DNA of 64,000 bases from a candidate division BRC1 bacterium ADurb.Bin183 (lineage in GTDB: Bacteria; Sumerlaeota; Sumerlaeia; MWCT01). This document shows, piece by piece, positions 8,887 through 53,132 of the stretch (its first letter is position 1; every line of letters starts with the position of its first letter). Both the position numbers and the translations under genes were made by a program. The stretch spans positions 267,110-331,109 of the forward strand of contig MWCT01000001.1 of the NCBI GenBank assembly GCA_002070185.1, given 5' to 3'. Under the pieces are notes generated by a model, which had not been told where the DNA came from, made no database searches, and was given only the letters and a program-made list of their open reading frames with translations.

Positions 8887-9034
8887 TGGACTTCTCTTTC
8901 ATTTTAGAATTCGACTCATATATTGATCATTTCGTTTGGAAGAGTGAAAGTATGGGGAGCAGATTTAAATTTTCCTAGATTCTGCAAAATAGCGATAAAA
9001 ATAAAAACTTCCAATCGCTCTGAGAATCGCCGGG

Positions 9035-11875
9035 CTATTTCTGTTTCATAATATGAATGATATCCGCAACGTCTATGATATTGTCCTTGTTATCATCGGC
9101 GGCATTTTTTTCTTCAGGTGTGAACGGTTTTTTGCCCAGAATATGCGAAATAATTGCGGGGATTGACGGAATATATTCGTATGCTCCCATATCATAACCA
9201 GAGCCCTGAGGACGCTTTACGCCGAGAATATCATAATCCGGCGCGCCTTCGGATGTCCCCTTGTCAATACAGGGGGAATTCGGCTGAAGCCGCAAATCCC
9301 ATTTTGTTGGGTCATCGCCGGATACATTGACAAACATAGGATTATCAGAAATATTGCCCCCGCCTGATATCCCACCGCTGAAACAACTGTACTTCACCAC
9401 ACCGCCGGAAAATTTAAAGTCTTCAGTATAATTATCCCATACTATACAGTTGGTCACTGTGCCTTTGTTATAAATCCCGCCGCCGTCTATTGCTCTGTTA
9501 TTATAGACTGTGCAATTGGTCACTGCGCCTTTGTTATAAATCCCGCCGCCGCGAGTTTTTGCGTTGTTTCCATAGACTGTGCAGTTGATCACCGTGCCGG
9601 AGTCGTAGTTATAAATCCCGCCGCCGCTATATTTTGCGCTGTTTCCATATATTGTGCAGTTGGTCACCGTGCCGTAGTTAGAAATCCCTCCGCCGTCATC
9701 TGCGTTGTTATTATAGACTATGCAATTGGTCACTGTGCCTTTGTTATAAATCCCGCCGCCGCAGAAGTCTTTGGCTATGACGTGTGTGCTTGATCTATTT
9801 CCATAGATTGTGCAGTTGGTCACCGTGCCTTTTTCGTAGTTATAAATCCCGCCGCCGTAATCTGCTTTGTTTTCATAGACGGTGCAGTTGGTCACCGTGC
9901 CGGAGTCGTAGTTATAAATTCCGCCGCCGCTATATTTTGCGCTGTTTCCATAGACTGTGCAGTCGGTCACCGTGCCTTTTTCGTCGTTATAAATCCCGCC
10001 GCCGATGTCTGTTGAGGTGTTATTATAGACTGTGCAGTTGGTCATCGTGCCGGAGTTATCTATCCCGCCGCCGTTTTTGGTTGCACTGTTTTCATAGACT
10101 GTGCAGTTGGTTACCGTGCCGTAGTTATAAATCCCACCGCCATCAGATACTGCGCTGTTTCCATAGACTGTACAGTTGGTCACCGTGCCTTGCCAGCTAT
10201 CAATCCCGCCGCCAACGTCTGCGTTATTTCCATAGACTGTGCAGTTGGTTACCGTGCCGTATTTGTTACTAATCCCGCCGCCGCTGCCAAATTGGCTTAA
10301 TACTTTGTTTCCATAGATTGTGCAGTTGGTCACTGTGCCAGTATTGTAAATCCCGCCGCCGTAATTTTCAGTTTTGCCTCTTGTAATATGAAAGCCGTCC
10401 AAAAATCCTGAGTTTTGGACGCAACGGCAAGCATCCTCTCCATCTATGATTGTGGGATGCGAGGAAATGTTCCGTTGTGAAAGTTGTGATTCCGTTCCCG
10501 CAAAGCCGCCATAAAGTGTAACGCGAATAGGAATTATTAATGTCTGCCCCTCAGCGTATGTTCCTTCCGCAACCCAGATTTGATAAATATCATCAGAATC
10601 CGCAATCTTATTCAAGGCGGCATTGATGGTTTTCAAAGCCGTCTTCCACGAGAGCCCATTATTGGCGTCGTTTCCGGATTTAGAAACATAAAGAGGACCC
10701 AAAGCTCGAGGCGGTTGAGGCTCATATTCATTGGGAGATTCATAGGCTCCCATGCAGACTTTGCCATCGGCGCCCGGTCGAGGATTGCCCATAATGTCTG
10801 TCTCCGGTGCGTCCTTCGTGCTCCCCGTATCCACACAAGGAGAGCCATTTTGCAATCGAAAATCCCATGTTGATAAATCGCCTGATGTGTTGACGAAAAG
10901 GGGATTCCCCCGTATATTTCCGTCATTTCCATCAGCCTCTTCGAAACAGCTATATTTCACAGATACTCTATTCCAAATATCTCCAAGCGAGTTTTTCCAT
11001 GAGATACAGTTGGTCACCGTGCCTTTGTTATAAATCCCGCCGACGATGTCCGTTGCGCTGTTATTATAGACTGTGCAGTTGGTCACCGTGCCTTTGTTAT
11101 AAATCCCGCCGCCGCCATATTTTGCGTTGTTGCTATAGACTGTGCAGTTAGTCACTGTGCCTTTTTCGTCGTTATGAATCCCGCCACCGTAATTTGCTTT
11201 GTTTTCATAGACTGTGCAATTGGTCAGCGCGCCGGAGTCGTAGTTATAAATCCCGCCGCCGTAACTTGTTGCGCTGTTATTATAGACGGTGCAGTTGGTC
11301 ACCGTGCCGGAAGAATCGTTATAAATCCCGCCGCCGTAACTTGTTGCGCTGTTATTATAGACTGTGCAGTTGGTCACCGTGCCGGAAGAGTTATAAATCC
11401 CGCCGCCGTAACTTGTTGCGCTGTTATTATAGACTGTGCAATTGGTCACCCTGCCGTAATTGTTATAAATCCCGCCGCCTAAGCCATATATCCCTCTTGT
11501 AATATGAAAGCCGTCCAAAACTCCTGAGTTATGGACGCATTGACGGGCATCCTCTCCATCTATGATTGTAGGATGTGCGGAAATGTTCCGTTCTGAAAGT
11601 TGTGATTCCGTTCCCGCAAAGCCGCCATAGAGCGCAACATCTTCACGATTACTAACGGTTTTAGATTCTGCATAGGTCCCTTTTGCGACCCAAACCTCAT
11701 CGCCTTCTTGTGCCTTTTCTGTTGCCTTTACAATTGTTTTTAAGGCGGCATCCCATGAAACTCCCGAATTAGTATCCTTGCCGGTGGTTTTCACATAATA
11801 CCGCGCCGCAAAGGTGGAAGTTGACATAATCACCCAAAATGCAATTACCGGGAAGATGCCTCGAGTAGATTTCAT
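9035..11875 (-). CDS. Secreted right-handed parallel beta-helix repeat protein, internally duplicated, with a dockerin-like C-terminal tail
   Basis: Track ORF 9035..11905; the ATG at 11875 (MKSTRG...) has a GGAG-type RBS. Two homologous ~450-aa modules, each with many GTVTNCTVYNNSA..GGGIYN rungs. C-terminus DDNKDNIIDVADIIHI resembles one dockerin/EF-hand-like Ca-binding loop. Confidence 0.7.
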   Translation of the reverse strand: MKSTRGIFPVIAFWVIMSTSTFAARYYVKTTGKDTNSGVSWDAALKTIVKATEKAQEGDEVWVAKGTYAESKTVSNREDVALYGGFAGTESQLSERNISAHPTIIDGEDARQCVHNSGVLDGFHITRGIYGLGGGIYNNYGRVTNCTVYNNSATSYGGGIYNSSGTVTNCTVYNNSATSYGGGIYNDSSGTVTNCTVYNNSATSYGGGIYNYDSGALTNCTVYENKANYGGGIHNDEKGTVTNCTVYSNNAKYGGGGIYNKGTVTNCTVYNNSATDIVGGIYNKGTVTNCISWKNSLGDIWNRVSVKYSCFEEADGNDGNIRGNPLFVNTSGDLSTWDFRLQNGSPCVDTGSTKDAPETDIMGNPRPGADGKVCMGAYESPNEYEPQPPRALGPLYVSKSGNDANNGLSWKTALKTINAALNKIADSDDIYQIWVAEGTYAEGQTLIIPIRVTLYGGFAGTESQLSQRNISSHPTIIDGEDACRCVQNSGFLDGFHITRGKTENYGGGIYNTGTVTNCTIYGNKVLSQFGSGGGISNKYGTVTNCTVYGNNADVGGGIDSWQGTVTNCTVYGNSAVSDGGGIYNYGTVTNCTVYENSATKNGGGIDNSGTMTNCTVYNNTSTDIGGGIYNDEKGTVTDCTVYGNSAKYSGGGIYNYDSGTVTNCTVYENKADYGGGIYNYEKGTVTNCTIYGNRSSTHVIAKDFCGGGIYNKGTVTNCIVYNNNADDGGGISNYGTVTNCTIYGNSAKYSGGGIYNYDSGTVINCTVYGNNAKTRGGGIYNKGAVTNCTVYNNRAIDGGGIYNKGTVTNCIVWDNYTEDFKFSGGVVKYSCFSGGISGGGNISDNPMFVNVSGDDPTKWDLRLQPNSPCIDKGTSEGAPDYDILGVKRPQGSGYDMGAYEYIPSIPAIISHILGKKPFTPEEKNAADDNKDNIIDVADIIHIMKQK
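9400..10350 (-). repeat. Degenerate tandem coding repeats (~70-75 nt period) encoding beta-helix rungs, C-terminal module
   Basis: Recurring near-identical stretches such as tgtgcagttggtcaccgtgcc...tataaatcccgccgcc appear roughly every 70-80 nt. Confidence 0.7.
10990..11480 (-). repeat. Degenerate tandem coding repeats encoding beta-helix rungs, N-terminal module
   Basis: Same repeat family as 9400..10350; several units are near-identical at the DNA level (e.g. gctgttattatagactgtgcagttggtcaccgtgccggaag). Confidence 0.7.
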
Positions 11876-11953
11876 TTTTATCCCCTCTCCAAATGTTCGA
11901 TACATTCAAATTCTCGACAAATAGAGAAACCAATTGCAATAAATATTTAGGGA

Positions 11954-11988
11954 AATCCGGGCATGGCTTGCCGCATGCGCCGGCAGCG
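11954..11988. repeat. 35-nt motif, copy B of an imperfect direct repeat (see 7496..7530)
   Basis: 31/35 identity to copy A, same orientation, intergenic between the stop of the GT39-like gene and the start of the beta-helix gene. Confidence 0.6.
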
Positions 11989-12107
11989 CCGATTATTCTC
12001 TTTTATAAATCTCAACAATTTTGAGGAATCAGGGTAGGGCGAGAGGGCTTGGGGTTTTAAGACGCTCTGGACACGATGACTTATCTGCCGTTGGCAAAGG
12101 CAAAAGT

Positions 12108-14078
12108 TTACTCCATTGTTTTCATTTCTATTTGTTCAACCCATATGGAAAGTTCGCGGGTATCCGCATCAAGAGGGTCGAGGCGCTGGGGCGATTGGGT
12201 GCGGCTGGAAAGGATGCGCGCCTCATTGACTCCGCTGAAAAGGGCTTCCGGCTCGATTTCCCATGCGATGTCCTGCCAACCTTGATGAAGCGTTCGGGAT
12301 GTGAGCAGGGTATCATTCACCATCAGATTCAGTTGGAGGGCGGGGTTCATTGCCTGATTGTAAGGGAAAACGCGGACGGACACCGCGAGCGGCTGCGCGT
12401 TTTCCAGAGTAAAAAAGAAAAAGCCTTCTTTGCCGTCCATGGCTCGGAGGGCTTTCCCCTCCCAGATTTCGCGCCCGCTCCAGCCCATGCCAAGATAGGG
12501 GCATTTTTCCTTTCCGGGAAAGATGATAAGATGGGGATTCGAATTGCCCAGAGGCGCGGTTTCAATGCGGGCGGAGTGTTTCTGCCAGATGGAGAGTCCC
12601 CAGAATTGAGGCGCTTCTTTATGCATGCCATTTTCTAAAATCTGCCGGTATCGAAGATTCGGGATATGCGCCGTTTCGATATAGGAGGGCAGAACAATTA
12701 AATGATTTCCGCGGCTGCGCAAAATATTCTCGAGCGTTTTTGTATCATCAAAATCAGTTTTTATGACCGTGTTTGTGCCGCAAAAAATGTTTTGATAGTA
12801 AGGAGCGACAAGAAAGTCTGCCTCCGTTCCCACAACCACAATTTTGTTTTTATGCTCCTCGCGGGCAAGTCTTTGGAAAAACCCGCGCCAGTCTGCGCGG
12901 TTGACGGGATACGCAAGGATATAGTAAAGCCCCGCCCCGAGACATAATGCGCCCAAAAATAAAGCCGCCGATGTCGCGGCGGCGGGCGCTGGCTTTTTGA
13001 AAAAGCGCCGAACAATGACTCCTGTAATCCACCCAAGCGTTTCGATTCCCATAGCGGCAAGCGCAAGAGCCGCCGGCAACGCCGCAAGGACATATCGCAC
13101 CTCCATCCAGTGATTGATGGCGTAATAAAACCCGAACATCCCTGCGAAAAAAACCGTGAATAAAAAAAAGCAAAAAAGGGCGGCGGGTCTTTTGTCGCGT
13201 CTGATAATCCAGCCTGCCAGACCAATCGCCATCAATGCCAAAAGCGCCCAGCCGCTCCCCGCAACGTATTGCCACCAATCATAGCCCAGCGCAAAAATAT
13301 CCAGATAAAGGCGCGCCCGTTCCCATGAGGCGGCGTCAAAGGGGGCGTAGTATTGAGTCTGAATGGCGCCGGCGCCCCGCTGCATGAGCGGAATCATGCT
13401 TAAAAGCGTCAAGAGAAGGAGGGCGGCGGGAAAAAGCCATTGCCGTTTTTGGGCGAACATCTCCCGCGGTTTATAAGGATGTTCTTTTTTCATAAGAAAC
13501 CAGCCCGCGCCAAAAAGAAGAGCCGCAAAGCAGACCAGCCCTGTCCAGTAAAGCGACCAGAGGCAAATCGCCATCGTGAAAATCAAAAAAGACATCTGGC
13601 GCGGACGGGGCGGCGCTGGCGATTTTGCCACACTCCAGAATGCGCCAAGGAACAGGCTTTCGGAAAAAAGCATCAAGGCATAGGGGCGCCCCTCTTGAGA
13701 ATATCGCGCCATCAAAGGGTTGCCAAGCGCCAGAATCAAGACGATAAGCCCGAGGGCGCTTCCGCCCATTTTCCATGCCCACCACCCCAGCGCCGCAACC
13801 GCCGCCGAACCGATGATGCAGGCATGCAAACGCGCGCGCGCCTCCGATGTTGGGGCATCCTTTTTCATAAAAAACCACTGAATGTAATAATCCAGCGGAG
13901 GTTTGTCGCTTGGGGATTGAGACCATATTTTGCCAAACCGCCCGCTTGTTGTCCGCATTTGAAGAATCTCATCCTGCCAAAAGGAGGCGCGGTCAATATG
14001 GGGCAAACGCGTAAAAAACGCTGCGATAAAACCGAGCAGAAGATAAACTATGAAAACCGGTTTTTTAACGGGAAACAT
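12108..14078 (-). CDS. Membrane glycosyltransferase, GT39/GT83-like (ArnT/PMT family) with C-terminal extracytoplasmic domain
   Basis: 656 aa, many TM helices in the first ~450 aa, an early DE motif in the first loop (FWQDEIL) and a soluble C-terminal domain. Typical of ArnT/PMT-type glycosyltransferases. Confidence 0.55.
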   Translation of the reverse strand: MFPVKKPVFIVYLLLGFIAAFFTRLPHIDRASFWQDEILQMRTTSGRFGKIWSQSPSDKPPLDYYIQWFFMKKDAPTSEARARLHACIIGSAAVAALGWWAWKMGGSALGLIVLILALGNPLMARYSQEGRPYALMLFSESLFLGAFWSVAKSPAPPRPRQMSFLIFTMAICLWSLYWTGLVCFAALLFGAGWFLMKKEHPYKPREMFAQKRQWLFPAALLLLTLLSMIPLMQRGAGAIQTQYYAPFDAASWERARLYLDIFALGYDWWQYVAGSGWALLALMAIGLAGWIIRRDKRPAALFCFFLFTVFFAGMFGFYYAINHWMEVRYVLAALPAALALAAMGIETLGWITGVIVRRFFKKPAPAAATSAALFLGALCLGAGLYYILAYPVNRADWRGFFQRLAREEHKNKIVVVGTEADFLVAPYYQNIFCGTNTVIKTDFDDTKTLENILRSRGNHLIVLPSYIETAHIPNLRYRQILENGMHKEAPQFWGLSIWQKHSARIETAPLGNSNPHLIIFPGKEKCPYLGMGWSGREIWEGKALRAMDGKEGFFFFTLENAQPLAVSVRVFPYNQAMNPALQLNLMVNDTLLTSRTLHQGWQDIAWEIEPEALFSGVNEARILSSRTQSPQRLDPLDADTRELSIWVEQIEMKTME

Positions 14079-14243
14079 ATTTTTTAATTCCTGTTAACAC
14101 TTATGGTTCAAACGAAAAATATAGTTGCAGCGGCGTCCGGCAATATACAAGAATTTTTGCAATTCGTGACGCCGATATTTTATCGGCATATTTTTTGCCT
14201 TGATATATCGCAGTTATATTTCACGGGCGGAGAAAGGCGTTTG

Positions 14244-15185
14244 GCGATGTCTCTTTGGACAAAGAGGAACAAAGGCTGGCTGATAATTGTTCCATTTGGG
14301 ACACTTTTTATCTTTGCCCTGATGCTTTCCCGTCCGATTTTATCCGACGAATCTACAACAGGCGTGAAAACCGTCCAAATACAGGATAAATCCGCGCCCT
14401 CGTCTCCGCAGCCCGAGAAAATCCGCGCCACTATCCGCCGTCTTGGAGATGTGGGAATGCGGCGCTCCATGCTTCATAAACGCCGCAATTCCCTGATGAA
14501 GGAAATGGGAAAAGCCAGAAGAGGCGCTAACTTTGACAAGCCCGGTCTTCGGCAATTCTTTTTCAAAAGAGGGTTCGAAAAAAAGGCGTCAGATTTGCAT
14601 CTTGTCCTCGAAGAAGAGCGGGAACTATCCATCGAACAACGCCTCCTCCTTCGAAAACTTCTCGAAAATAAAACCCTGACAAATGATTTAATTAATGAAG
14701 AAATAGCATCTATTGAAAAGGCGGGAAAACCATCGGCGGGCGATAAAAAAACCGCTGCGCAGGATAATAAATTCCGAGCCGCCAGACGCATCGAATCCCT
14801 CAGACAGATTCGCGAAGCCCTTGATTATCTGGAAAAAAATCCGCGCCAGCCCGCGCCGGCGGAAAAAATCTCAAAGACCGAAGAAACGGCGCAGACTGCC
14901 GGCGCCCCTCAGCCGCGTTCGCCGCGTCCCCGCAGCCGTATGAGGGCGCGCCCTGAAACCGGCGATGAAAAGGAATGGGCGCAAAATTTTGTCGGACAAA
15001 AAATGCGGCGTCTCCAAAATCAGATGCAGGAGCTCCGCATCAATTTGGAACGCTCCCAACGGGAAATGGAAGACCTGAAACGAATCATCAAAACGCTTCG
15101 CGAGCGCCGTCCGGAAATCTTTGAGGAGATTGAAAAAGAGGGACGGGAGCAAAAAATAAATCCCGAAAGCGAAAAGAAGAATTAA
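14244..15185 (+). CDS. Hypothetical membrane-anchored coiled-coil protein
   Basis: Track ORF starts at 14103, only 25 nt from the divergent gene start. The internal ATG at 14244 (MSLWTKRNKGWLIIVPFGTLFIFALML) gives one TM helix followed by a charged, coiled-coil-like sequence. Confidence 0.4.
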   Translation, partial: AMSLWTKRNKGWLIIVPFGTLFIFALMLSRPILSDESTTGVKTVQIQDKSAPSSPQPEKIRATIRRLGDVGMRRSMLHKRRNSLMKEMGKARRGANFDKPGLRQFFFKRGFEKKASDLHLVLEEERELSIEQRLLLRKLLENKTLTNDLINEEIASIEKAGKPSAGDKKTAAQDNKFRAARRIESLRQIREALDYLEKNPRQPAPAEKISKTEETAQTAGAPQPRSPRPRSRMRARPETGDEKEWAQNFVGQKMRRLQNQMQELRINLERSQREMEDLKRIIKTLRERRPEIFEEIEKEGREQKINPESEKKN

Positions 15186-17785
15186 CGTCCGCGAATTTTT
15201 TTCCCATAGGGCGTGACTGTCATGCCCAAATTCTCAATCTTTTCGATGCGCGCGACCACATCTTTAAAACCGGCGTCCACACGGAAAATCTGCTTGTATA
15301 GTTTGAGCGCTTTTTGGTGCTCCAGTTCCTTTTCGAATTGAATGGCGGTGTCCAGAAAATAGGACTTAATCTCTTCCTGATGGGGGTTATCCGATAAAGA
15401 GAGTTTGATTTCGCCCAGCGTCTCCTCGGCAAGGTCGAGCATCCCGCGCCGGGCAAGACAGTAAGCGAGTTTCGCCTTGCAGATATCGGGCTGAGGGGCG
15501 AGCTGCGCGGCTCGCTGGTAATGTTTGACCGCTTCCGTAAAATCCTCAAAAAAGCAAAGCAAGTCGCCCGCCTCCTCGCGGAGTTCGGAATTGTCCGGTT
15601 CGGCTTCGAGCCTTTGAATCGCTTCGTCCAACTTGCGCTTTTTTTCGCTGCTGAGGGCTTTTTCGAGGAGTTTGGTATTATCTTTGTCGGCGGGCGCCAG
15701 CGCCTTTGCCTTGTCGAAAAGCTCCATAGCATCGGGGAAGCGTTTGCAATCCAGATAAAGTTTGCCGAGCTTAGTCAGGAGTTTTGGATTTTCCGGAGAA
15801 CGTGCAATCATGCGCTGTCCGGCGATAAGCGCCTCCGCCTGATTGCCGACGGCGCAAAGGGCGTCAAAGAAGATGTCCAATCGGTCGGCAATCAATTCCT
15901 CGTTGCGCTCAAAACATATGCGCCAGTGGCGGACGAGCGTCTCCCAGTCTTTTTCTTCCAACGCAAGTTCGCCGAATTTTTTATGGGCGGGGAGGTAGTC
16001 GGGGTCAATGCGGAAGATTTTTTCGCAGCAGGATTTCATAACCGACCGCGGTTCGAGGACGCGGGAAGAGGCGCGTTCATAGATGGCAAGCGCCTTGTCC
16101 AATTCTTTATCCTTCAAGCACATATCGGCAAGGTAATCAAGGAGCAAAAAGTTTTGCTCATACTTTGATGCCAGATTTTCGATGAATGCTCGGATCTCCT
16201 CCTTCATCTCCGGATGGAAATAAAGGAAGGTGTCAATCTCGCTTGTCACGCGTTCAAAATAGGAATTGACCATGAGACGCTCAATCAGGTCGTAACGGAG
16301 TTTTGTGTTTTTAGGGTCGGCGTCAATTTTATCGCGCAGGTCTTTTATCTGGGCGTTCACGATAGCGCCCTCAATCTTGCGTGCAAGAATCTGCAGCTCG
16401 TCCTTTTTTTCCTGCGGGGCGATTTTAATAGCCTCGGCGAGTTCCTCCCGCGCGCGGTCATATTCCTTGTGGTCATAGTAGAGCTGGGCGAGCAGCTGCG
16501 GGAACTGGTATTCTTCCGGATAGCGTTCCCGCGCCTTGTTGAGATGCTCGATGGCGCCCTCGTAATTTTCTTTCTGGATGAGCAGCTGTGCGTATTCCTT
16601 GAGGATGAGGGGGGACATTTCGCCCTGCCGCAGCAGGTGTTCGATGTGTTTTTCGACCATGGCAACGTTCAACGTTTCAAGGTGATACTGGAGGAGCATA
16701 CGGCGCAGGTCTTTGTTATCGGATTCAAGGGAAAGCAGCCGTTCGTAATATTCCGCGCCTTCGCCTTTTTTGCCGAGTTCCCAGCAAAGGTCGCCGATAT
16801 CGCGGAGGAGTTGGGTATCGTCGGGCGATGCTTGCAGGATGCGGCGATACTCAAAGAGCGTTTTGGCGCAGGGCGCTTCCTCCACGCGGGCGGCTTGGGC
16901 GAGGAGTTCGCGCACGCGGCTGGTGTTTCCCACTTTCAGATAAAGGCGCTCGAGCCGGAGAATCTCATCCAGCGAGTTGAAGTCTGTGCGCGCCTCAATC
17001 AGCGGGATGGCAAGATCCACCTGCTCTGTTTTAAGGTAAAGGTCAGAAAGGCGCAAGGAAAGCGACAGGTCATCCGGATGGCGCGTCTGCAGGTCTTGAT
17101 AAAATGAAATAGCCTCCTCGGGTCTGCCGCTTTTTTCAAACCCTTCGGCAAGAAGATAAAGCGAATCATCGGAAAGGGGGATCGCCTTCATCAACGGAAT
17201 CAAAACGGCGCGGGCGGAGGAGAGGCGTCCGCTTCTGTGGAGGCATTGCCCTTGCGCCTCAATGAGTTGCGGGTCAGCCGGTTTTAAGAGCAGCGCCTTG
17301 TGAATAAAAAAAGAGGCGGCGCGATACCATTTCATACGCATGCCAAAAAAGCCCAGCCCGCCGAAAATTTTGAACAGCAGCGCCTCAAAAGAAAAGATTA
17401 AAAAAGGAGACGCAAAGGCGATAATCAGCGCGACCGGGATGGAGATAACCGCCGTGACCGCGTTTTCCAGCAGGGCGCCCGCCAGCGCCGCCGCTTGAAT
17501 CGAAAGGTTCAAAAAACACAGATACAAAAGCGTTGAGGGGCGTTTGGCGCGTTTGGAATCCATCGTGAGCAGATAGGCAATAATAGAAAAAAATGCCGTG
17601 GCTCCAAAGCCGATAAAAGTATACAGACCGATGACATCCGTCTCCAAATCTCCGATATATTCCCTGATGATGGACAGATGGTCGTATGAGTTCCAATAGG
17701 CGAAATAAAAAAGCGCGAGCGCAACTCCGAGAACAAGAAGCAGCGCCGCAAGCATAATGCTGAAAAAATTCCGCGTTCGATTCAT
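15182..17785 (-). CDS. TPR-repeat protein with N-terminal multi-TM domain
   Basis: 867 aa; N-terminal ~140 aa hydrophobic, the remainder built from many TPR-like helical repeats. Its stop overlaps the stop of the convergent upstream gene by 4 nt. Confidence 0.6.
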   Translation of the reverse strand: MNRTRNFFSIMLAALLLVLGVALALFYFAYWNSYDHLSIIREYIGDLETDVIGLYTFIGFGATAFFSIIAYLLTMDSKRAKRPSTLLYLCFLNLSIQAAALAGALLENAVTAVISIPVALIIAFASPFLIFSFEALLFKIFGGLGFFGMRMKWYRAASFFIHKALLLKPADPQLIEAQGQCLHRSGRLSSARAVLIPLMKAIPLSDDSLYLLAEGFEKSGRPEEAISFYQDLQTRHPDDLSLSLRLSDLYLKTEQVDLAIPLIEARTDFNSLDEILRLERLYLKVGNTSRVRELLAQAARVEEAPCAKTLFEYRRILQASPDDTQLLRDIGDLCWELGKKGEGAEYYERLLSLESDNKDLRRMLLQYHLETLNVAMVEKHIEHLLRQGEMSPLILKEYAQLLIQKENYEGAIEHLNKARERYPEEYQFPQLLAQLYYDHKEYDRAREELAEAIKIAPQEKKDELQILARKIEGAIVNAQIKDLRDKIDADPKNTKLRYDLIERLMVNSYFERVTSEIDTFLYFHPEMKEEIRAFIENLASKYEQNFLLLDYLADMCLKDKELDKALAIYERASSRVLEPRSVMKSCCEKIFRIDPDYLPAHKKFGELALEEKDWETLVRHWRICFERNEELIADRLDIFFDALCAVGNQAEALIAGQRMIARSPENPKLLTKLGKLYLDCKRFPDAMELFDKAKALAPADKDNTKLLEKALSSEKKRKLDEAIQRLEAEPDNSELREEAGDLLCFFEDFTEAVKHYQRAAQLAPQPDICKAKLAYCLARRGMLDLAEETLGEIKLSLSDNPHQEEIKSYFLDTAIQFEKELEHQKALKLYKQIFRVDAGFKDVVARIEKIENLGMTVTPYGKKIRGR

Positions 17786-17862
17786 ATTCTCATTCAGTTA
17801 TTCACATAATATAAAATAATGAATCAGAAGCGCGGATTAAAAATCAACATGAATTCAAAAGT

Positions 17863-18678
17863 TTATTTGATGTGCGGGGCGATCATCTCGTCAACGCGGA
17901 TGAAACTATAGCCGCGTTTTTCGAGTTCCTTGAGCAGCGCATCAAGCCGCACAAAGAATTTATCCTTGCGCCCCGGTCCCGCCCCGATGTGAATCAGCAG
18001 GAAAAATCCGTTCAGTCCGTTCGGGTCTTTTTCCTCCTTTTCCAGAATCTTTCCGTAAATGAAATCGGAAGAGCGGAAGTTGCTGTCCTCCTCCCCCGTG
18101 TAGTCTGCATTTGAATAGGAGCCGGGGGAATAGTTGAAAAGCACCAGCCCCATCTCATTGCTCCAGCGGGAGATGTCTTCGTTATACCATTCATAGGGCG
18201 GAATCCAATATTTATTGACCTTTGGGTTTACGCCGTATTTTTCCAGATATTTAAAGCTGGATTTGACGTCTTCGGTGAATTCCTCTTTGGTGACGAGCGT
18301 TTTATTGACGTCCTCCCATGGGCAATATAGCGGGTGCTTATCCGAGTGCGTGCCGAGGTAATGCCCCTCGTTCACGATGCGGCGGATGATGGGGTCAAAT
18401 TCACGCATGCGGAAAAAGTCTCCCGTAAAAAAGAAAGAGCCTTTGATGCCGTGTTTTTTGAGCACATTGAGGATGTGCTCGCCGCCTTCGCCGAATGAGC
18501 CGCCTGTGAAAACAAGGGAGATTTTCTTTTCATCTGTTGGACCGCGCTCAATGCCGCCGCGCACCCATGTCAGTTTGCCGCCGCCCAAAAGGGAGGCGCA
18601 TCCTGTTTCGGAGAATAAAAGCCCCAGCGCCATCAGTTTAATCATAATCCCGTCGCCTTCCAAAATGGAATAAAGCAT
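17863..18678 (-). CDS. Polysaccharide deacetylase-like (CE4/NodB-homology) lipoprotein
   Basis: Lipoprotein-like signal (LLFSETGCAS). NodB-type motifs HSDKH and PPYEWY are present, but motif 1 is divergent (SLVFTGGS rather than TFDDG). Confidence 0.5.
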   Translation of the reverse strand: MLYSILEGDGIMIKLMALGLLFSETGCASLLGGGKLTWVRGGIERGPTDEKKISLVFTGGSFGEGGEHILNVLKKHGIKGSFFFTGDFFRMREFDPIIRRIVNEGHYLGTHSDKHPLYCPWEDVNKTLVTKEEFTEDVKSSFKYLEKYGVNPKVNKYWIPPYEWYNEDISRWSNEMGLVLFNYSPGSYSNADYTGEEDSNFRSSDFIYGKILEKEEKDPNGLNGFFLLIHIGAGPGRKDKFFVRLDALLKELEKRGYSFIRVDEMIAPHIK

Positions 18679-18745
18679 GTTAGTGTCTCTCCAGTATATT
18701 GAATGTTTAAATAAACCCAGCTCGCAGCGGATTCAAGAAAAATTT

Positions 18746-20794
18746 TTATTCCGCAACGCCCTGCCAGTCATCCGTTCGGAAAGGCGATGCGGGCAGTCCG
18801 GCTCCGTTATAAAGATTGCATGATGGATTGCCAGCCCAGCCGAATCGGACGGCGGCTGGATGGGCGACTTTTTCGCTGCGGACAAAAACGCTTTCGCCCT
18901 CTATGCGCGCATCAGCCCAGTAGAATTTTTTATCCGCGCCCGCGATGGCAAAGCCGGTGAGAGGTTCGCCGTTTTTTGAGACCAAGCCGCCATCGGCATA
19001 GTCAAAAAAAACACGCGCGCCGCCGTTTTCAATTTTTAGAGAGTCTTTTTTGTAAATCGGACCCGAATGCGTTATCTTTTCGCCGTAGGCGATTTTTCGC
19101 GCGGCAAGGGCAAGGCGGCGCCCCACCTCTTGCTTGTTGCGGGGATGGATGTCCGCCGCATCGCCGATATCAATCGCCACCGCCATGCCTGTGTTCGGTT
19201 CCGCAAGCGCCATCGTCTGCGCCTCGCGCAGCTCAGCCCAAGCGTCCTCCGCCGGTTCGGGCAGCGCCGCGCCGAAATTGGCAAGCTGCACGAAAAGGAA
19301 AGGGAAATCGCCCGCGCCCCACTTTCCCCGCCAGTCGCGGATGAGGAGCGGAAAGAGCGTGCGATATTGGCGCGCGCGCCCCGCATTGCTTTCGCCCTGA
19401 TACCAGATGACGCCCCTTATCCCATAGGGAAGAATCGGAGAAATCATGCCGTTGAAAAGAACGGCTGGATGCCCGCTATAATTTGGCGGGAGCGGGCGGG
19501 GCGGAAGAACTTTCAAATCCAGCGAAGGTTTGTAATGCCACTCGCCCGCAAGCGATATGCGCGCATTTCCGCCCGCTGTTGGACAATGGATATGCAAATC
19601 TTCCGGCTTGGCGGTAAAACCGCCCGGTCCGCCTGTATCAAGGACGCGGATGGCGATGGTGTTTTCGCCCTCGCGCGCAAGAGCGGCTGGGATTTCATAT
19701 CTTCTATTTTCAAAAAAGATTTCTTTTGCGCCGACCAATTCGCCGTTGAAATATGTTTTATCCTCATCGTCAATCGCGCCGAGGTTGATGACGAGGTGTT
19801 TGCCCGCCCATTCGCGCGGGAGGCTGACCTTTTTATAGAACCAGACCACGCCGTCAAAATTCGGCAGACCGGCGGGTTCCCATTGCGAAGGCAGTTGCAT
19901 AGTCTGCCAATCGGAAACATCCAGTGTTGGTTTTGCCCATACAGGGACGCCGCTGCTCATGCCCGCATCGCACTTTTCAATCTCATCCTTCCATGCCGCC
20001 ATATTTGTTTCGTAAACCCTTTTTGCCGTTTCCATGTCCGGCGGCAACCCGCCGATTTTTTCCAAATCAGATGCAAATTCGGGAATAACGCGGAGGGAAT
20101 CGGCGCTAATCCATGATTCAATCGGCGTTCCGCCAAAGGAGCTGTGGATGAGCCCCACCGGCACGCCGTATCGTTTGTGAATCTCGCGCCCAAAAAAATA
20201 TGCGGCGGCGGAAAATGACGGCGATGTTTTGGGGCTGCATTCGACCCACCCGTCGGTGTTTGCATCCGGCTGCGGCGTGAAACTTATTTGATGAGGGATG
20301 GTAATCAATCGAATTTGCGGATAGTCGGACTCGGCGATTTCGCGCTCATAATCGAGAACCTTCCCCCACTCGTCTCCGATATGCATCTCCATATTGGATT
20401 GACCCGAGCAAGCCCAGACCTCGCCCGCGAGCACGTTTTTGAATGCGATGATTTTGATGCTGTCCGAGATATTCAAAGTCCACGGACCGCCTGCGCTTAA
20501 CGGACCGATGGCGACGCTCCATCTGCCGTCGCTTCCCGCCTTGCCCGACCAAGTTTTCCCATCCAGAATAATTACAACCTTTTCCCCCGGCGCGTCCCAT
20601 CCCCAGATTTGGATTATTTTATCCCGCTGAAGAACCATGTTGTCGCTGAAGATGGCGGGCAGGCGTAGTTCGCCGGCTGCGGGCGTCTCGCGAACGGTTT
20701 TGATTCTGCCGCATTGGAAAAAAAGAAAACAGCAAACCGGAATCATTAACATTCGCGCAAGGCAGGTCAGCGTGTTGAAAAGTGTGCGATTCAT
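18746..20794 (-). CDS. Sialate O-acetylesterase family protein (SASA-like)
   Basis: Hallmark segments DNMVLQRD and GEVWACSGQSNME of sialic acid-specific 9-O-acetylesterases; N-terminal signal sequence. Confidence 0.7.
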   Translation of the reverse strand: MNRTLFNTLTCLARMLMIPVCCFLFFQCGRIKTVRETPAAGELRLPAIFSDNMVLQRDKIIQIWGWDAPGEKVVIILDGKTWSGKAGSDGRWSVAIGPLSAGGPWTLNISDSIKIIAFKNVLAGEVWACSGQSNMEMHIGDEWGKVLDYEREIAESDYPQIRLITIPHQISFTPQPDANTDGWVECSPKTSPSFSAAAYFFGREIHKRYGVPVGLIHSSFGGTPIESWISADSLRVIPEFASDLEKIGGLPPDMETAKRVYETNMAAWKDEIEKCDAGMSSGVPVWAKPTLDVSDWQTMQLPSQWEPAGLPNFDGVVWFYKKVSLPREWAGKHLVINLGAIDDEDKTYFNGELVGAKEIFFENRRYEIPAALAREGENTIAIRVLDTGGPGGFTAKPEDLHIHCPTAGGNARISLAGEWHYKPSLDLKVLPPRPLPPNYSGHPAVLFNGMISPILPYGIRGVIWYQGESNAGRARQYRTLFPLLIRDWRGKWGAGDFPFLFVQLANFGAALPEPAEDAWAELREAQTMALAEPNTGMAVAIDIGDAADIHPRNKQEVGRRLALAARKIAYGEKITHSGPIYKKDSLKIENGGARVFFDYADGGLVSKNGEPLTGFAIAGADKKFYWADARIEGESVFVRSEKVAHPAAVRFGWAGNPSCNLYNGAGLPASPFRTDDWQGVAE

Positions 20795-20809
20795 AAAAGT
20801 TCCTTTCGA

Positions 20810-22813
20810 TTATTCAATAAGCCCTTCCGATTTATGCCTGAGCAGCCGAAGCCGCCGACAGGCAAGGATATCGGCGGGCTCAATTGCGAGAATCTTCCGC
20901 AATGTTTGGTAACACTCGTCGTAGCGTCCCATGAATGCGTAAGCGGAGGCGGCGCCGTTCATGGCGATAAGCAGCTGCCTGCCTTTCAGCCGATTGGCGG
21001 ATTTGTGGAAAAAATCGAGGGCGGTTTCCAATCGCGGCGGCACGCGTTTCAGATTAATTAGTCCGATATAGTAATACATGACATAACGGACTTCGCCTAA
21101 TGTTCCGCTATATCGCAGCCCCTCCATAAGAAATTCTTCCGCGCGGTCAAGGTCGGGCTCCAACATCTCCACGCAAAGCCCGCTGTAGTTGTAATAATTC
21201 TGAAGAGTTTGCGGGTCCTCTTTCATGGCAAGTTCAAGGGTTTTAATCGCCTGCGCCTCATAATAGCGCGCCAGTTCAAGATAATGAGCCGCCTTTTTGA
21301 AATCGCCCCGTTCGCGCCAGATGTTTCCATTCACAATATTCTCCCGCCGCGCTAAGCTATATTCGGCGCCCAAGGCGGAATAGCGCCCCGCGCTGCGCGG
21401 GTTCAGCCGCAACTCCGCCTCCCAGAGGGCAACGCCGGAACGCCAATTCAAATTTCTCATATAAGTTCTAATGGAATAAAATATCATGAGAAAACAAAAA
21501 ACGCCGAACGCCCATTTCCGCCATTTCATTTTTTGATGGGCGCGGGCATAGAAAATACCCGCTGCCAAAGAAACCGAAACCGATGGAAGGTAAAGGAATC
21601 GCTCGGCGATGAAGTCCCCAAATGGCATAATATTGGAAAATGGAAACATGACAATGGGGAAAAATATCAAGGGATAGGCGAGCGCGCTTTTGTTTTTAAC
21701 GGCGCGGTATGCCAGCGCCGCGTAGAGGAAGCCCACGGCGACGCCGGCAAGCGCCCAGCCGTTCAAAAAACCGCCCGGCTGCTGCGCCCAGAACGGACCC
21801 CAAATGCGAACCGGAAAATTGTAATCTGGGCTCATAGCCACAGGCAGCGTTAAAAGACGCCAGTATGCCAGCGACCCCGCGCTCATCGCCGCCAGACGCT
21901 GCGCCGTTGTCTCTTTCCAGAAATACCACCCATCCGGATTAATGCCGATGACGCCCAAAACTTTGAGGCGTATGATGAGATACAGGATAAATACTGCGGT
22001 AAAGGGGAGAAGGCGGATGATGGCGTTTTTTGCGAACAAAAGGAAATTTTCCCTCTCCCCGCCATCATCTTTTTGGCGCAACCAAAAAAACCAATCCGTT
22101 AAAAGAATCGCCGGCGGGAGCGTGACTGCGGTTTCTTTGGACATTAAGGAAGCCGCAAAAAAAAACCAAGATAGAATGCGCAAAGGCGCAAACAGCCGTT
22201 TTTCCTTTCGCGCCCCGATATGCGCAACCAGCGAGAGTAAAAAGAAAAAGGCGCAAAGCGATTCGGCGCGTCCCACCAGCGAGGCAACCGCCTCCACATG
22301 AACAGGATGCGCCGAAAAAATCAACGCCGCGGCAAAGGCGGCTCGCTCGCTTCCTAAAAGCCGCCGCGCCAGAAACAAAAGCGCCAGAACAGTCCCGATA
22401 TGGATTAAGATGTTGGTGAGGTGAAAGAAGGGCGTTTCCGCGCGGTCGTTGAAATTCATATCCGCAAATTCACTCGGGCGCAGGCTGCGGCACCAATCAA
22501 GAAGATAGGTCAGGGACACAATCGGACGATATAGCGAAAGATTCGGGCGATGCGGCGGATAAGGCTCGGCAAAAAGTTTTAAAATCTTTGCCGGATTCTG
22601 AATGGAGGCGTTGCCGACAATATATTCCATATCGTCATATGTGAAACGATTGGGCAATGTATTGATGAAGAGAAGGAGGTTGAAAATGATGAGGGCGTAA
22701 ATCTGCCGGCGCGTTGTTTTGAAAAAATAAAGCGGCGCCTCGCCTTCTTGCGGAGTTTGAGACGGCTTGGAAGGCGCGTTCGGCTGGATTATTACTTTGC
22801 CGGAAGGCTTCAT
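20810..22813 (-). CDS. TMTC-like membrane glycosyltransferase (GT39-related, DUF1736-type) with C-terminal TPR repeats
   Basis: N-terminal multi-TM domain with the FTYDDMEYIVGN motif typical of TMTC/PMT_2-like O-mannosyltransferase-type proteins; TPR repeats in the C-terminal ~250 aa. Confidence 0.6.
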   Translation of the reverse strand: MKPSGKVIIQPNAPSKPSQTPQEGEAPLYFFKTTRRQIYALIIFNLLLFINTLPNRFTYDDMEYIVGNASIQNPAKILKLFAEPYPPHRPNLSLYRPIVSLTYLLDWCRSLRPSEFADMNFNDRAETPFFHLTNILIHIGTVLALLFLARRLLGSERAAFAAALIFSAHPVHVEAVASLVGRAESLCAFFFLLSLVAHIGARKEKRLFAPLRILSWFFFAASLMSKETAVTLPPAILLTDWFFWLRQKDDGGERENFLLFAKNAIIRLLPFTAVFILYLIIRLKVLGVIGINPDGWYFWKETTAQRLAAMSAGSLAYWRLLTLPVAMSPDYNFPVRIWGPFWAQQPGGFLNGWALAGVAVGFLYAALAYRAVKNKSALAYPLIFFPIVMFPFSNIMPFGDFIAERFLYLPSVSVSLAAGIFYARAHQKMKWRKWAFGVFCFLMIFYSIRTYMRNLNWRSGVALWEAELRLNPRSAGRYSALGAEYSLARRENIVNGNIWRERGDFKKAAHYLELARYYEAQAIKTLELAMKEDPQTLQNYYNYSGLCVEMLEPDLDRAEEFLMEGLRYSGTLGEVRYVMYYYIGLINLKRVPPRLETALDFFHKSANRLKGRQLLIAMNGAASAYAFMGRYDECYQTLRKILAIEPADILACRRLRLLRHKSEGLIE

Positions 22814-22900: not shown

Positions 22901-23299
22901 TTGAATTTTGGCAAAAGAAATCAAGAAGAAACAAAAAGGCGGGCAATCCTCCCGGCAATCATCTTGGCTGCGCTGTGCGGTTTTTTGCTCTGGAGAGGCA
23001 ATAACTATTTTATCATCCCTTTATTTTTGTGCCTTTATTTTTTGGCGGGAATCGCCATTCATCCCGCGCTTCTGAAGCCGGCTGATGCCCTTGCGCGCAG
23101 AGTATCAAACGCGCTTCTTTGGCTTGCCACGCGGTTGGTTCTTATTTTAATTTATTATCTTATTATCACGCCGATTGCCCTCTGGTTCCGCCTCCGCGGA
23201 CGAGACCGATTGCGGCTGAAATTTCCATCGGGCGAAGCCTCCTTCTGGCGAAGGCGTCCGCCGGAGGAACAGGAGCCGAAGCTGGAAAAGCAGTATTGA
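22901..23299 (+). CDS. Small membrane protein, SxtJ-like family (hypothetical)
   Basis: 132 aa with two hydrophobic helices; LLWRG...PALLKP...LWLATRLVLILIYYLIITPIALWFRLRGRD resembles the SxtJ-type small membrane protein pattern. Called from memory only. Confidence 0.4.
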   Translation: MNFGKRNQEETKRRAILPAIILAALCGFLLWRGNNYFIIPLFLCLYFLAGIAIHPALLKPADALARRVSNALLWLATRLVLILIYYLIITPIALWFRLRGRDRLRLKFPSGEASFWRRRPPEEQEPKLEKQY

Positions 23300-23353: not shown

Positions 23354-24379
<1,026 letters not shown>

Positions 24380-24507: not shown

Positions 24508-25785
24508 TCATCCCTTCCTGATGTTCTTTATATGATAACGCAATGAATCAAACGATAGCGCGCCTTCGCGCAGGATGGTATAGGGTTCTTTGATGACGGA
24601 AAGGACTGTGGAGACTAGCTCGCAACGCATCTCTCCAGCATCAAGGATGATGTCCACTTTTCCGCCAAAGTATTCCTTCACCTGTTCGGCGGTGCGGGCG
24701 GGCGGTTGACCTGATGGATTGGCGCTGGTGACTGCGAGCGGGCGCGCCGCCATGTTAATGACGCCCAGCGCAACTGTGCAATCGGGGATGCGGATGCCGA
24801 TAGTATCGCCGTTGGAAACGGCGGAAAGCATAGTCTCAGGTTTGGAGAAGATGACCGTCAGCGCTCCAGGCCAGAGTTCATCCAGCATTTCTTCCACATC
24901 TTTTGGAATTTTGCGGACAAGGCGGCTGAGCGTTTTCATGCTGTCAATCAGCAAGGGGATGGGCTTGCTCTCTTTGCGCCCCTTGATGTCGTAAAGTTTA
25001 TGAACGGCTTTTTCGTTGGTTGAATCGCAGGCAAGACCATAGACGGTGTCTGTGGGGATGGCGACAATCTTTCCTTCCAAAATGGCATCCGCCACGCGTT
25101 CGATTGCCTCAAAGGAGGGGTTATCGGGATCAACGCGGAGGATTTGTCTGCTTTTAGGCGCGGGCGATGCGGCGGGGATATTGGGTCTTTTTGAGATAAT
25201 AGACGCAGGCGCGGGCTTTGGCTGCGGCGCAACTGGAGCGGCTTTGGGTTTCTCTTGCACTTTTGCGGGCGCGGGATTCAGCGCCAGATGAGGGAAACGG
25301 CTCATCAACTCCTGCTGATCCGTCTCGATTTTATCCATGCGGTTTTTGCGGAACGCCACCAGACGCTTGCGGAGTTCGCAATCATGGAGGGCAATAATCT
25401 CCGCCGCCAAAAGCAACGCATTTTGGACGCTATTGATTCCCACGGCGGCGACCGGGATGCCGGGCGGCATCTGCACGATGGAATAAAGGGCGTCCTGTCC
25501 GCGCAATGCGTCCGCCTCGACGGGAACGCCAATGACGGGCAGAAGCGTCTGCGCCGACACAACGCCGGGCAAGGCGGCAGCCATTCCGGCGACGGCGACA
25601 AATACCTGAACGCCCGCCTCTTCCGCTTCCTTTATCCAGCGCATGACGGCTTCCGGCGTTCGATGCGCCGATGCGATGCGCGCGGCACAGCGCAGATTCA
25701 ATTCCGCAACAGCCTCCAGCGCTTTTTCCACCAGATGCCAGTCCGATTTGCTCCCAATGATAATACCGATAGCAGGCTCGCCCAT
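24508..25785 (-). CDS. Fusion protein: N-terminal PurE-like (N5-CAIR mutase family) domain and C-terminal YrdC/TsaC-like (threonylcarbamoyl-AMP synthase family) domain
   Basis: Residues ~1-160 carry PurE signatures (IGIIIGSKSDW, SAHRTPE, AGMAAALPGV). A Pro/Ala-rich linker follows, then a YrdC domain (IVAIPTDTVYGLACD...RIPDCTVALGVINMAARPLAVTSANPSGQP). Confidence 0.75.
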   Translation of the reverse strand: MGEPAIGIIIGSKSDWHLVEKALEAVAELNLRCAARIASAHRTPEAVMRWIKEAEEAGVQVFVAVAGMAAALPGVVSAQTLLPVIGVPVEADALRGQDALYSIVQMPPGIPVAAVGINSVQNALLLAAEIIALHDCELRKRLVAFRKNRMDKIETDQQELMSRFPHLALNPAPAKVQEKPKAAPVAPQPKPAPASIISKRPNIPAASPAPKSRQILRVDPDNPSFEAIERVADAILEGKIVAIPTDTVYGLACDSTNEKAVHKLYDIKGRKESKPIPLLIDSMKTLSRLVRKIPKDVEEMLDELWPGALTVIFSKPETMLSAVSNGDTIGIRIPDCTVALGVINMAARPLAVTSANPSGQPPARTAEQVKEYFGGKVDIILDAGEMRCELVSTVLSVIKEPYTILREGALSFDSLRYHIKNIRKG

Positions 25786-44574: not shown

Positions 44575-44608
44575 TGGCGAAAAATCATGCTGAAACAAAC
44601 CTCGCGGT

Positions 44609-53113: not shown

Positions 53114-53132
53114 ACGAATTCGAGGGGAGCTT

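Follow-up and report, generated by a model that had tools for sequence, protein, structure and literature searches.

Do the six genes at positions 12108-22813 of the stretch analyzed here, 64,000 nucleotides of contig MWCT01000001.1 from the candidate division BRC1 bacterium ADurb.Bin183 (Sumerlaeota) and hereafter the window, form a single pathway for glycosylating exported proteins, or do they merely lie side by side? The initial annotation, made from the sequence alone, had proposed a protein O-glycosylation or cell-surface glycan remodelling locus, in which two GT39-related glycosyltransferases flank a large TPR membrane protein and two glycan de-acetylating enzymes, and in which abundant secreted giant proteins are the plausible substrates. 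The reading that we favor, with a probability of roughly 0.55, is that genes for cell-envelope carbohydrates have been brought side by side here in a lineage-specific way and do not make up a self-contained pathway: a TMTC-type enzyme would act on exported proteins, and the second glycosyltransferase of the GT-C fold and the esterases would act separately.

The genes were found where the annotation had placed them. Six long open reading frames (ORFs) fill 12108-22813, five on the minus strand and one on the plus strand, and the two glycosyltransferase genes stand at the ends and flank the others (coordinates are positions in the window, and amino acid counts come from the ORF translations):

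20810-22813, minus strand: TMTC/TfpW-type GT-C glycosyltransferase with C-terminal TPR, 667 amino acids
18746-20794, minus strand: CE20-family carbohydrate O-acetylesterase, 682 amino acids
17863-18678, minus strand: CE4/NodB-fold protein without the canonical Asp-Asp motif, 271 amino acids
15182-17785, minus strand: membrane-anchored TPR protein, 867 amino acids
14103-15185, plus strand: Lys/Glu-rich coiled-coil protein with one membrane helix, 360 amino acids
12108-14078, minus strand: divergent PMT_2-clan GT-C glycosyltransferase, 656 amino acids

As each of them has many homologues, the six genes are real and not a chance pattern; the closest named homologues belong to Sumerlaeota. Rfam and tRNA scans gave no RNA genes in the window.

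Gene order and its conservation

We assessed synteny by tblastn of the window proteins against all fetched genome contexts (numbered with the prefix L below) and from the gene tables of the relatives. On same-species and near-identical metagenome contigs, the same genes were present at 94–100% protein identity and their order was kept as far as the contigs extend. A genus-level relative, with proteins 71–89% identical, keeps the full gene order, but in relatives at 40–60% identity it is lost in all, and two blocks persist. The first block, consisting of obg, a small membrane protein with four helices and the TMTC-like gene, was found in six of six further contexts. The second consists of the TPR protein (59–60% identity), an opposite-strand gene (an M48 peptidase in the relatives) and the second GT-C (40%); it was found in three further species and was absent from four other contexts. 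Within this block, the orthologues of the TPR protein lie just upstream of those of 12108-14078 (L001/L091, L092/L093 and L094). Because the full order is limited to relatives at 71–89% identity and only the two blocks remain at 40–60%, we conclude that the neighborhood is a recent lineage-specific juxtaposition and not a conserved pathway.

The two genes that complete the first block lie immediately beyond the region:

22901-23299, plus strand: small 4-helix membrane protein, 132 amino acids, located between the TMTC-like gene and obg and read divergently from the former
23360-24379: obg, downstream of the small 4-helix membrane protein

The gene following the TMTC-like gene is not the same in the relatives. 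At the position of the CE20 esterase in the window they have a GH38 alpha-mannosidase, found after the TMTC-like gene in four of five independent contexts. It is directly downstream in three of these, by 14–193 bp (L004, L005/L006 and L007), and about 2.7 kb downstream in L009; these relatives are at 47–56% identity. The mannosidases have 931–934 amino acids, and the directly adjoining genes are located as follows:

L004 11994-14798: GH38 alpha-mannosidase
L005 12164-14959: GH38 alpha-mannosidase
L007 7213-10014: GH38 alpha-mannosidase

In L007, a GH116 gene is located at 10031-12673. No signal peptide was found in the GH38 proteins of the relatives, which are probably cytoplasmic; the argument that a GH38 neighbor indicates periplasmic mannose is weakened by this lack of a signal peptide.

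Within the window, the first four minus-strand genes (22813 to 15182) are separated by gaps of 15, 67 and 77 bp, the shortest of them lying between the CE20 gene and the upstream TMTC-like gene. A scan for promoters and terminators, otherwise uninformative, gave no terminator-like sites in these gaps. With gaps so short and such sites absent, the four genes from 20810-22813 to 15182-17785 may share a transcript. The fifth minus-strand gene, 12108-14078, is set apart from the others by the plus-strand 14103-15185.

The TMTC-like enzyme and its bacterial relatives

The proposal of a TMTC-like glycosyltransferase with fused TPRs was borne out for 20810-22813. In Pfam searches, the protein matched PMT_2 (PF13231) at 28.4 bits, against a cut-off of 26.1, and gave weak TPR matches at the C-terminus. 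Its AlphaFold model (pLDDT 90) consists of 11 membrane helices followed by about five TPR-like hairpins at the C-terminus, placed on the side of the catalytic loop, predicted to be the periplasmic one. The whole protein reached a eukaryotic TMTC2 from an amphibian at 1e-18 (phmmer), and the membrane domain alone (residues 1-460) matched frog TMTC2 with BLASTP E values of 2e-20 and 8e-8. Against PDB sequences, a full-length profile of the family was swamped by TPR matches, and single-sequence searches with either GT-C were uninformative too. A TPR-free profile, built from 18 bacterial membrane domains, matched TMTC2 over 428 columns (hhalign probability 100%, E 1e-42) and found no ArnT, PMT, STT3 or other GT-C chains among PDB sequences. 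Given that this profile matches TMTC2 yet does not reach ArnT, PMT or STT3, we place the protein with TMTC and not with ArnT. Judged by its sequence, 20810-22813 is a genuine member of the TMTC type; its homology to TMTC is specific and independent of the TPR repeats.

Using the seven TMTC motifs M1–M7 as defined by Eisenhaber and co-workers (PMC7801869), we found three to be identical to those of TMTC, namely M1 (D60-D61), M4 (K226-E-T-A-V-T231) and M7 (E404-R-F-L-Y408). The three stretches align column for column with TMTC2 and insect TMTC, and their residues are invariant across 18 orthologues; among the wider homologues, D60, K226, E227 and R405 vary little or not at all. The other motifs are partly kept. 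M2 retains YRP only (Y95-R96-P97) and has lost the SHKS part, M3 reads R182-A-E184 (RxE versus RxD), M5 reads D330-Y331 (DY versus DW), and of M6 (PxxP) the second proline alone aligns.

By analogy with its characterized relatives, the enzyme would take a single sugar, possibly mannose as in TMTC, from a polyprenyl-phosphate-sugar at the periplasmic face of the membrane. KETxxT and ERxxY would hold the phosphate and a metal ion, and we infer as acceptors the serine or threonine residues of exported proteins recruited by the TPR domain. The protein adds a clean candidate-phylum example from bacteria, with M1, M4 and M7 identical, to a family that is known and uncharacterized: full-length prokaryotic homologues of TMTC have been noted as existing (PMC7801869). 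In one Sumerlaeota context (L010), the orthologue of 20810-22813 is followed after about 2 kb by a second TMTC-like paralogue (10625-12736, 703 amino acids, with an FLWDDE motif). A prepilin-type gene is found 2–5 kb away in the TMTC-like contexts L004 and L010; such genes are abundant in these phyla, and the proximity may be due to chance.

The family is better represented elsewhere. The family profile retrieved 80 genome loci at 25–34% identity, mostly from Gemmatimonadota including Longimicrobiales; the loci are phylogenetically related, and the counts given here do not represent independent events. A co-directional cassette is common among them: a histidine kinase, a sigma-54 regulator, in some cases a methyltransferase, then a GT2 enzyme, the TMTC-like gene or genes and the type IV pilin or pilins, followed by a second kinase/regulator pair (PilS/PilR-like) and then a pseudopilin. 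The TMTC-like genes number one to three in tandem and are accompanied in some cassettes by a TPR-less PMT_2 GT-C; the type IV pilin genes number one or two. Of the 80 loci, 32 had the pilin cluster and 36 had the GT2 cluster. Examples of the cassette are the following:

L012-L086: range of the cassette examples
L020: TMTC-like genes at 7899-10016 and 10013-11881, pilin downstream
L021, L031, L042, L045, L064: further examples

The arrangement mirrors that of pilA and tfpW in Pseudomonas aeruginosa, and by this analogy it suggests O-glycosylation of pilins. It is the position of these relatives next to pilin genes, as in pilA-tfpW, that argues for a protein acceptor in the bacterial TMTC-like family as a whole.

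The bacterial family is TMTC-like rather than ArnT- or PMT-like, and its linkage to pilin and GT2 genes in Gemmatimonadota points to protein substrates that can be tested. The phylum has cultured members such as Gemmatimonas, and we regard the pilin-linked cassettes as a more promising lead than the locus in the window. A broader proposal, which we put forward only tentatively, is that the bacterial TMTC-type enzymes constitute a widespread TfpW-related system of protein O-glycosylation, dedicated to pilins in Gemmatimonadota and, in Sumerlaeota, uncoupled from pilins and acting on other exported proteins, such as giants with PKD or beta-helix repeats. In animals, TMTC enzymes matter for development through the O-mannosylation of cadherins; if the proposal is true, the Sumerlaeota enzyme would be a prokaryotic counterpart of that machinery, and a bacterial ancestry of the latter would become testable.

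The second GT-C enzyme and the other proteins

The claim of two GT39-related enzymes holds for 12108-14078 at the level of fold, superfamily and remote homology only, and neither of the two enzymes carries PF02366 or MIR. The protein matched no family in Pfam or NCBIfam, including PMT_2 (PF13231). Its AlphaFold model (pLDDT 89) has a GT-C core of about 11 membrane helices; its periplasmic part, the last 260 residues, is made up of an alpha/beta domain and a beta-sandwich resembling CBM6/35. In Foldseek, 35 PDB structures matched at E ≤ 0.001 and GT-C enzymes ranked best: ArnT (5f15) came first (E 2e-8), and after it STT3, PglB, Emb and Pmt4; Pmt4 and Pmt2 are structural matches of both GT-Cs of the window. 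For the C-terminal beta-sandwich, local Foldseek matches were to CBM6, CBM35 and CBM16 (E 6e-4 to 2e-3, target TM-scores 0.44–0.64). Counted in clusters at 50% identity, the family is sizeable: 595 reach E ≤ 1e-30 and 16,098 reach E ≤ 1e-10. All of 46 family members keep the acidic pair D36-E37 of the first periplasmic loop as well as R24, W34, R83, R328-Y329 and G532; K59-P-P-L62 and R131-P-Y133 are also invariant. The periplasmic C-terminal domain, which has no Pfam match in the window protein, is itself conserved in the family and has a GW motif in the sandwich, G532 being invariant and W533 nearly so.

Among the distant members, 27 of 46 matched PMT_2 (best E 5e-16) and 12 of 46 matched PMT. 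The best matches of the family profile to PDB sequences were ArnT (E 0.013) and Pmt4 (E 0.037), and against TMTC2 the profile found nothing. We rejected the idea that the two GT-Cs are close paralogues: narrow alignments of the two families gave a probability of 1%, and with wider ones the families were related remotely and in the N-terminal part only (132 columns, probability 92%, E 5e-7). The protein is thus a GT-C of a separate, sizeable family within the PMT_2 clan, neither GT39 nor TMTC, and ArnT is marginally its best solved relative. The initial annotation had taken clustering with ArnT instead of protein mannosyltransferases as the outcome that would speak against protein glycosylation; by this measure, 20810-22813 sides with the protein mannosyltransferases. 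The second enzyme, 12108-14078, also has a DE catalytic loop and would work independently of 20810-22813; its CBM-like periplasmic domain suggests that it may act on a glycan rather than a protein.

Two side observations concern the surroundings of this family. At 9035-11905, on the same strand and 202 bp downstream of 12108-14078, an ORF of 956 amino acids contains Chlamydia PMP repeats and a right-handed beta-helix; it is not kept beside the second GT-C in relatives. In L096, a gene of the prepilin type (N-methyl) at 9287-9907 lies immediately upstream of a 28%-identity relative of 12108-14078; here too the proximity may be due to chance.

The 867-residue protein at 15182-17785 is, as had been proposed, a large TPR membrane protein (TPR_19 at 117 bits, with many other TPR families in Pfam); it reached no specific NCBIfam equivalog. 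Hydropathy and the positive-inside rule predict four N-terminal helices followed by about 730 residues of TPR repeats, which are probably cytoplasmic. We considered whether it might be the split-off TPR half of the second GT-C, which is unlikely as the helices and the charge bias put the repeats in the cytoplasm. For the same reason, the protein, although a conserved neighbor of that enzyme, is unlikely to be its periplasmic acceptor-binding partner. The adjacent 14103-15185, which the annotation had omitted, matched no family in Pfam or NCBIfam. It has a membrane helix at residues 58-76, and its start may instead be Met49 at 14247. The gene was present only in the same-species contig L089 and the genus-level relative L126 (71% identity), and more distant relatives have the M48 peptidase gene at its position.

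The remaining two enzymes had been described as a sialate O-acetylesterase and a CE4-like deacetylase. The former, 18746-20794, has the expected SASA match (65.7 bits), split into two stretches with Glyco_hydro_2_N between them, and consists of an SGNH/SASA domain interrupted by a beta-sandwich, with a hydrophobic, signal-like segment at residues 8-26. Against structures of the CE20 family, it gave E 4e-156 over residues 39-677 (9h4u, Fl8CE20_II), 2e-153 (9ega) and 8e-130 (7kmm, XacXaeA), while mammalian sialic acid esterases align with its C-terminal part alone, at E of about 1e-47. The CE20 relatives Fl8CE20_II, PpCE20_II and XacXaeA have the same inserted beta-sandwich and are linked to the breakdown of xylan or xyloglucan (PMC12313940, PMC8245568). 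The "sialate" label derives from the name of the Pfam family only, and the annotation should read CE20 esterase of unknown specificity.

In 17863-18678, the predicted Polysacc_deac_1 domain is present at 62.4 bits (cut-off 23.1), and the metal motif H111-S-D-K-H115 is invariant in 22 aligned homologues. Aligned to PgdA and PdaA, the protein has FTGG opposite TFDD (PgdA) or TFDN (PdaA), and the stretch FTGGSF(A/G)EGG is conserved in the 22 homologues, with T58-G59 invariant. We found 3713 homologues, and on the evidence of these alignments the protein is a member of a very large CE4-like subfamily without the canonical catalytic Asp pair. In other Sumerlaeota, orthologues at 70–73% identity lie in a polysaccharide cluster together with Wzt, a methyltransferase, GT4 enzymes and epimerases:

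L123 8001-8813: CE4 orthologue in a polysaccharide cluster
L124 8001-8810: CE4 orthologue in a polysaccharide cluster

The CE20 and CE4-like proteins would be exported de-acetylases, inserted between the two conserved blocks recently, at the genus level. They would probably act on acetylated envelope or dietary glycans, independently of both transferases.

Among the large ORFs scanned in the 64-kb window, we found neither a GT2 donor synthase nor a recognizable flippase. The small membrane protein at 22901-23299, considered as a flippase of the GtrA or SMR type, was set aside as the family check of its four hydrophobic helices gave a sub-threshold match to SxtJ alone (21.5 bits, cut-off 24.4). 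In all Sumerlaeota contexts examined (L004-L010, L125), obg and the TMTC-like gene have an orthologue of this protein between them. Elsewhere in the window, the scanned large ORFs are a mosaic of unrelated functions, among them a tRNA synthetase, ArgJ, a two-component system, several transporters and a putative glycoside hydrolase of the GxGYxYP type. An ORF at 53061-62831 (plus strand, 3256 amino acids) contains 13 PKD domains, an F5/8 type C domain, beta-propeller parts of the NHL and SGL-like kinds and a C-terminus resembling FlgD_ig/CHU_C, and its neighbor at 48696-49865 (plus strand, 389 amino acids) contains FlgD_ig; both are possible exported substrates or adhesins. Two further ORFs are multidomain proteins: 24508-25785 (minus strand, 425 amino acids) joins PurE (AIR carboxylase, 185 bits) to a Sua5/YciO/YrdC domain (183 bits), which unusually brings purine synthesis together with a domain of the tRNA t6A-synthesis family, and 41101-44715 (minus strand, 1204 amino acids) unites MFS transporter, acyltransferase and AMP-binding domains and looks like an LplT-Aas-type fusion for lysophospholipid recycling.

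Competing readings and known systems

It is quite improbable that all six genes make up one pathway of protein O-glycosylation and glycan editing, in which both GT-Cs glycosylate secreted giants, the TPR protein aids recognition and the esterases trim acetyl groups. Such a pathway would account for four co-directional genes with gaps of 15–77 bp and no terminator-like sites, for the whole order being kept in the 71–89%-identical relative, for one GT-C being of the TMTC type and for the large exported repeat proteins nearby (the PMP/beta-helix protein at 9035-11905 and the 13-PKD protein at 53061-62831). It is difficult to reconcile with the loss of the order in all relatives at 40–60% identity, the opposite-strand gene separating the second GT-C, the probably cytoplasmic repeats of the TPR protein, the ties of the closest characterized relatives of the CE20 esterase to plant or algal hemicellulose breakdown and the failure to find a donor synthase or recognizable flippase among the scanned large ORFs. 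What stands of the locus originally proposed is a plausible TMTC-type protein glycosyltransferase; its coherence is unsupported, with an order that is not conserved. As to its components, the genes and most domains were correct (PMT_2 in 20810-22813, TPR, Polysacc_deac_1 and SASA among the expected families), whereas the GT39 assignment of 12108-14078 is one of fold and the expected DUF1736, as well as any family for 12108-14078, did not appear.

Many bacterial enzymes of the PMT_2 type modify glycans or lipids, and the two GT-Cs could likewise decorate lipopolysaccharide, lipid A or a polysaccharide in the manner of ArnT, GtrC or GacL, adding single sugars taken from polyprenyl-phosphate donors, with the CE4-like and CE20 proteins adjusting the N- and O-acetylation of the same polymer. 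We regard such a surface-glycan locus as unlikely. In its favor, fold and profile alike rank ArnT first among the solved matches of 12108-14078, the C-terminal domain of that protein resembles carbohydrate-binding modules, and CE4 orthologues of other Sumerlaeota lie within clusters of Wzt ABC-transporter, GT4 and epimerase genes. The TMTC-like gene, on the other hand, is specifically homologous to protein O-mannosyltransferases and not to ArnT, it has a TPR domain of the kind that recognizes proteins in TMTC and TfpW, and its Gemmatimonadota relatives are linked to pilin genes. A top match to ArnT is also unable to discriminate between acceptors, as ArnT is the best template for TMTCs themselves (PMC7801869). 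One may also ask whether the adjacency has any functional meaning at all: the CE20 and CE4 proteins could be catabolic enzymes for acetylated dietary polysaccharides in an organism that degrades glycans, having landed between unrelated envelope genes of a housekeeping type. This is possible but doubtful. The association of the closest characterized CE20 relatives with the utilization of xylan or xyloglucan, the mosaic of unrelated functions in the remaining window and the different carbohydrate-active enzyme (GH38) after the TMTC-like gene in relatives are as expected from it, but the tight spacing is compatible with one transcript, the CE4 orthologues elsewhere are in biosynthetic and not catabolic clusters, and neither a sugar transporter nor a glycoside hydrolase nor a utilization-type regulator is found beside CE20 and CE4.

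Several observations weigh against a lineage-specific juxtaposition around a TMTC-type enzyme for exported proteins, the reading that we prefer. DUF1736 (TMTC_DUF1736, PF08409) had no match in 20810-22813 even at E ≤ 10; it is present in some more distant bacterial homologues (P0030, P0031, P0059, P0066 and P0073). As M2 (in its SHKS part), M5 and M6 depart from those of animal TMTCs, the sugar and the donor may differ. The window contains no prepilin N-terminal motif anywhere, and no other substrate candidate is genetically linked to 20810-22813. Literature searches gave no experimentally studied bacterial TMTC homologues besides TfpW. The topology of the 867-residue TPR protein is derived solely from hydropathy and charge bias. 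Finally, the tight packing and the possible co-transcription of the four minus-strand genes would speak for a degree of functional coupling even though the order is poorly conserved, and the placement of CE4 orthologues in polysaccharide clusters fits a role on envelope glycans better than an unrelated one.

Among known systems, the CE20 esterases share with 18746-20794 full-length homology including the inserted beta-sandwich, the ACSGQSNME stretch (GQSN block) and the D-x-x-H-P segment; unlike in those systems, no xylan or xyloglucan utilization gene neighbors it. ArnT (GT83) shares with 12108-14078 the GT-C fold, the DE motif in loop 1, the KPPL stretch and a C-terminal periplasmic domain. 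It differs in its low identity to the protein (12–13%) and in that no arn genes are nearby; the periplasmic part of 12108-14078 is the alpha/beta domain with the CBM6/35-like sandwich. The fungal and actinobacterial PMT enzymes (GT39) belong to the same GT-C superfamily and appear as structural matches through Pmt4 and Pmt2, but both GT-Cs of the window lack Pfam matches to PMT (PF02366), MIR and PMT_4TMC, and PMT chains are out of reach of the TMTC-like family profile by sequence.

The closest comparison for 20810-22813 is with TMTC1-4, which we take to belong to CAZy family GT105 and which transfer O-mannose to proteins in animals. Common to them are a GT-C core of 11 helices with TPR repeats after it, facing the catalytic side, homology across the whole membrane domain, the DD, YRP, GRxE/D, KETxxT, D(W/Y) and ERxxY motifs and the HP(V/I)H(V/T)EAV stretch. 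The bacterial enzyme differs in having about five divergent TPR-like hairpins, where the compared eukaryotic TMTC sequences match far more TPR families in Pfam, in lacking SHKS of M2 and a DUF1736 match, in having Tyr for Trp in DW and in lineage-specific insertions in loops 1 and 4; its donor lipid must be a bacterial polyprenol.

The bacterial system that it resembles is TfpW of Pseudomonas aeruginosa, the D-arabinofuranosyl transferase of pilin, for which pilin O-glycosylation has been shown experimentally (bioRxiv 10.1101/2020.04.19.049825). TfpW is described there as having 646 amino acids, an N-terminus in the cytoplasm, 11 predicted helices, a DDx motif located in periplasmic loop 1 and, at the C-terminus, a TPR domain exposed to the periplasm; its best template is ArnT. 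Compared by this published architecture, 20810-22813 is of similar length (667 versus 646 amino acids) and agrees in a predicted cytoplasmic N-terminus, the 11 helices, DDx in loop 1, the periplasmic TPR domain and ArnT as best structural template. It differs in its setting, with no prepilin gene in the window, whereas tfpW directly adjoins pilA, and TfpW also polymerizes arabinofuranose, an activity that nothing suggests for the Sumerlaeota enzyme. The TPR domain serves protein recognition in both TMTC and TfpW (PMC7801869; bioRxiv 10.1101/2020.04.19.049825).

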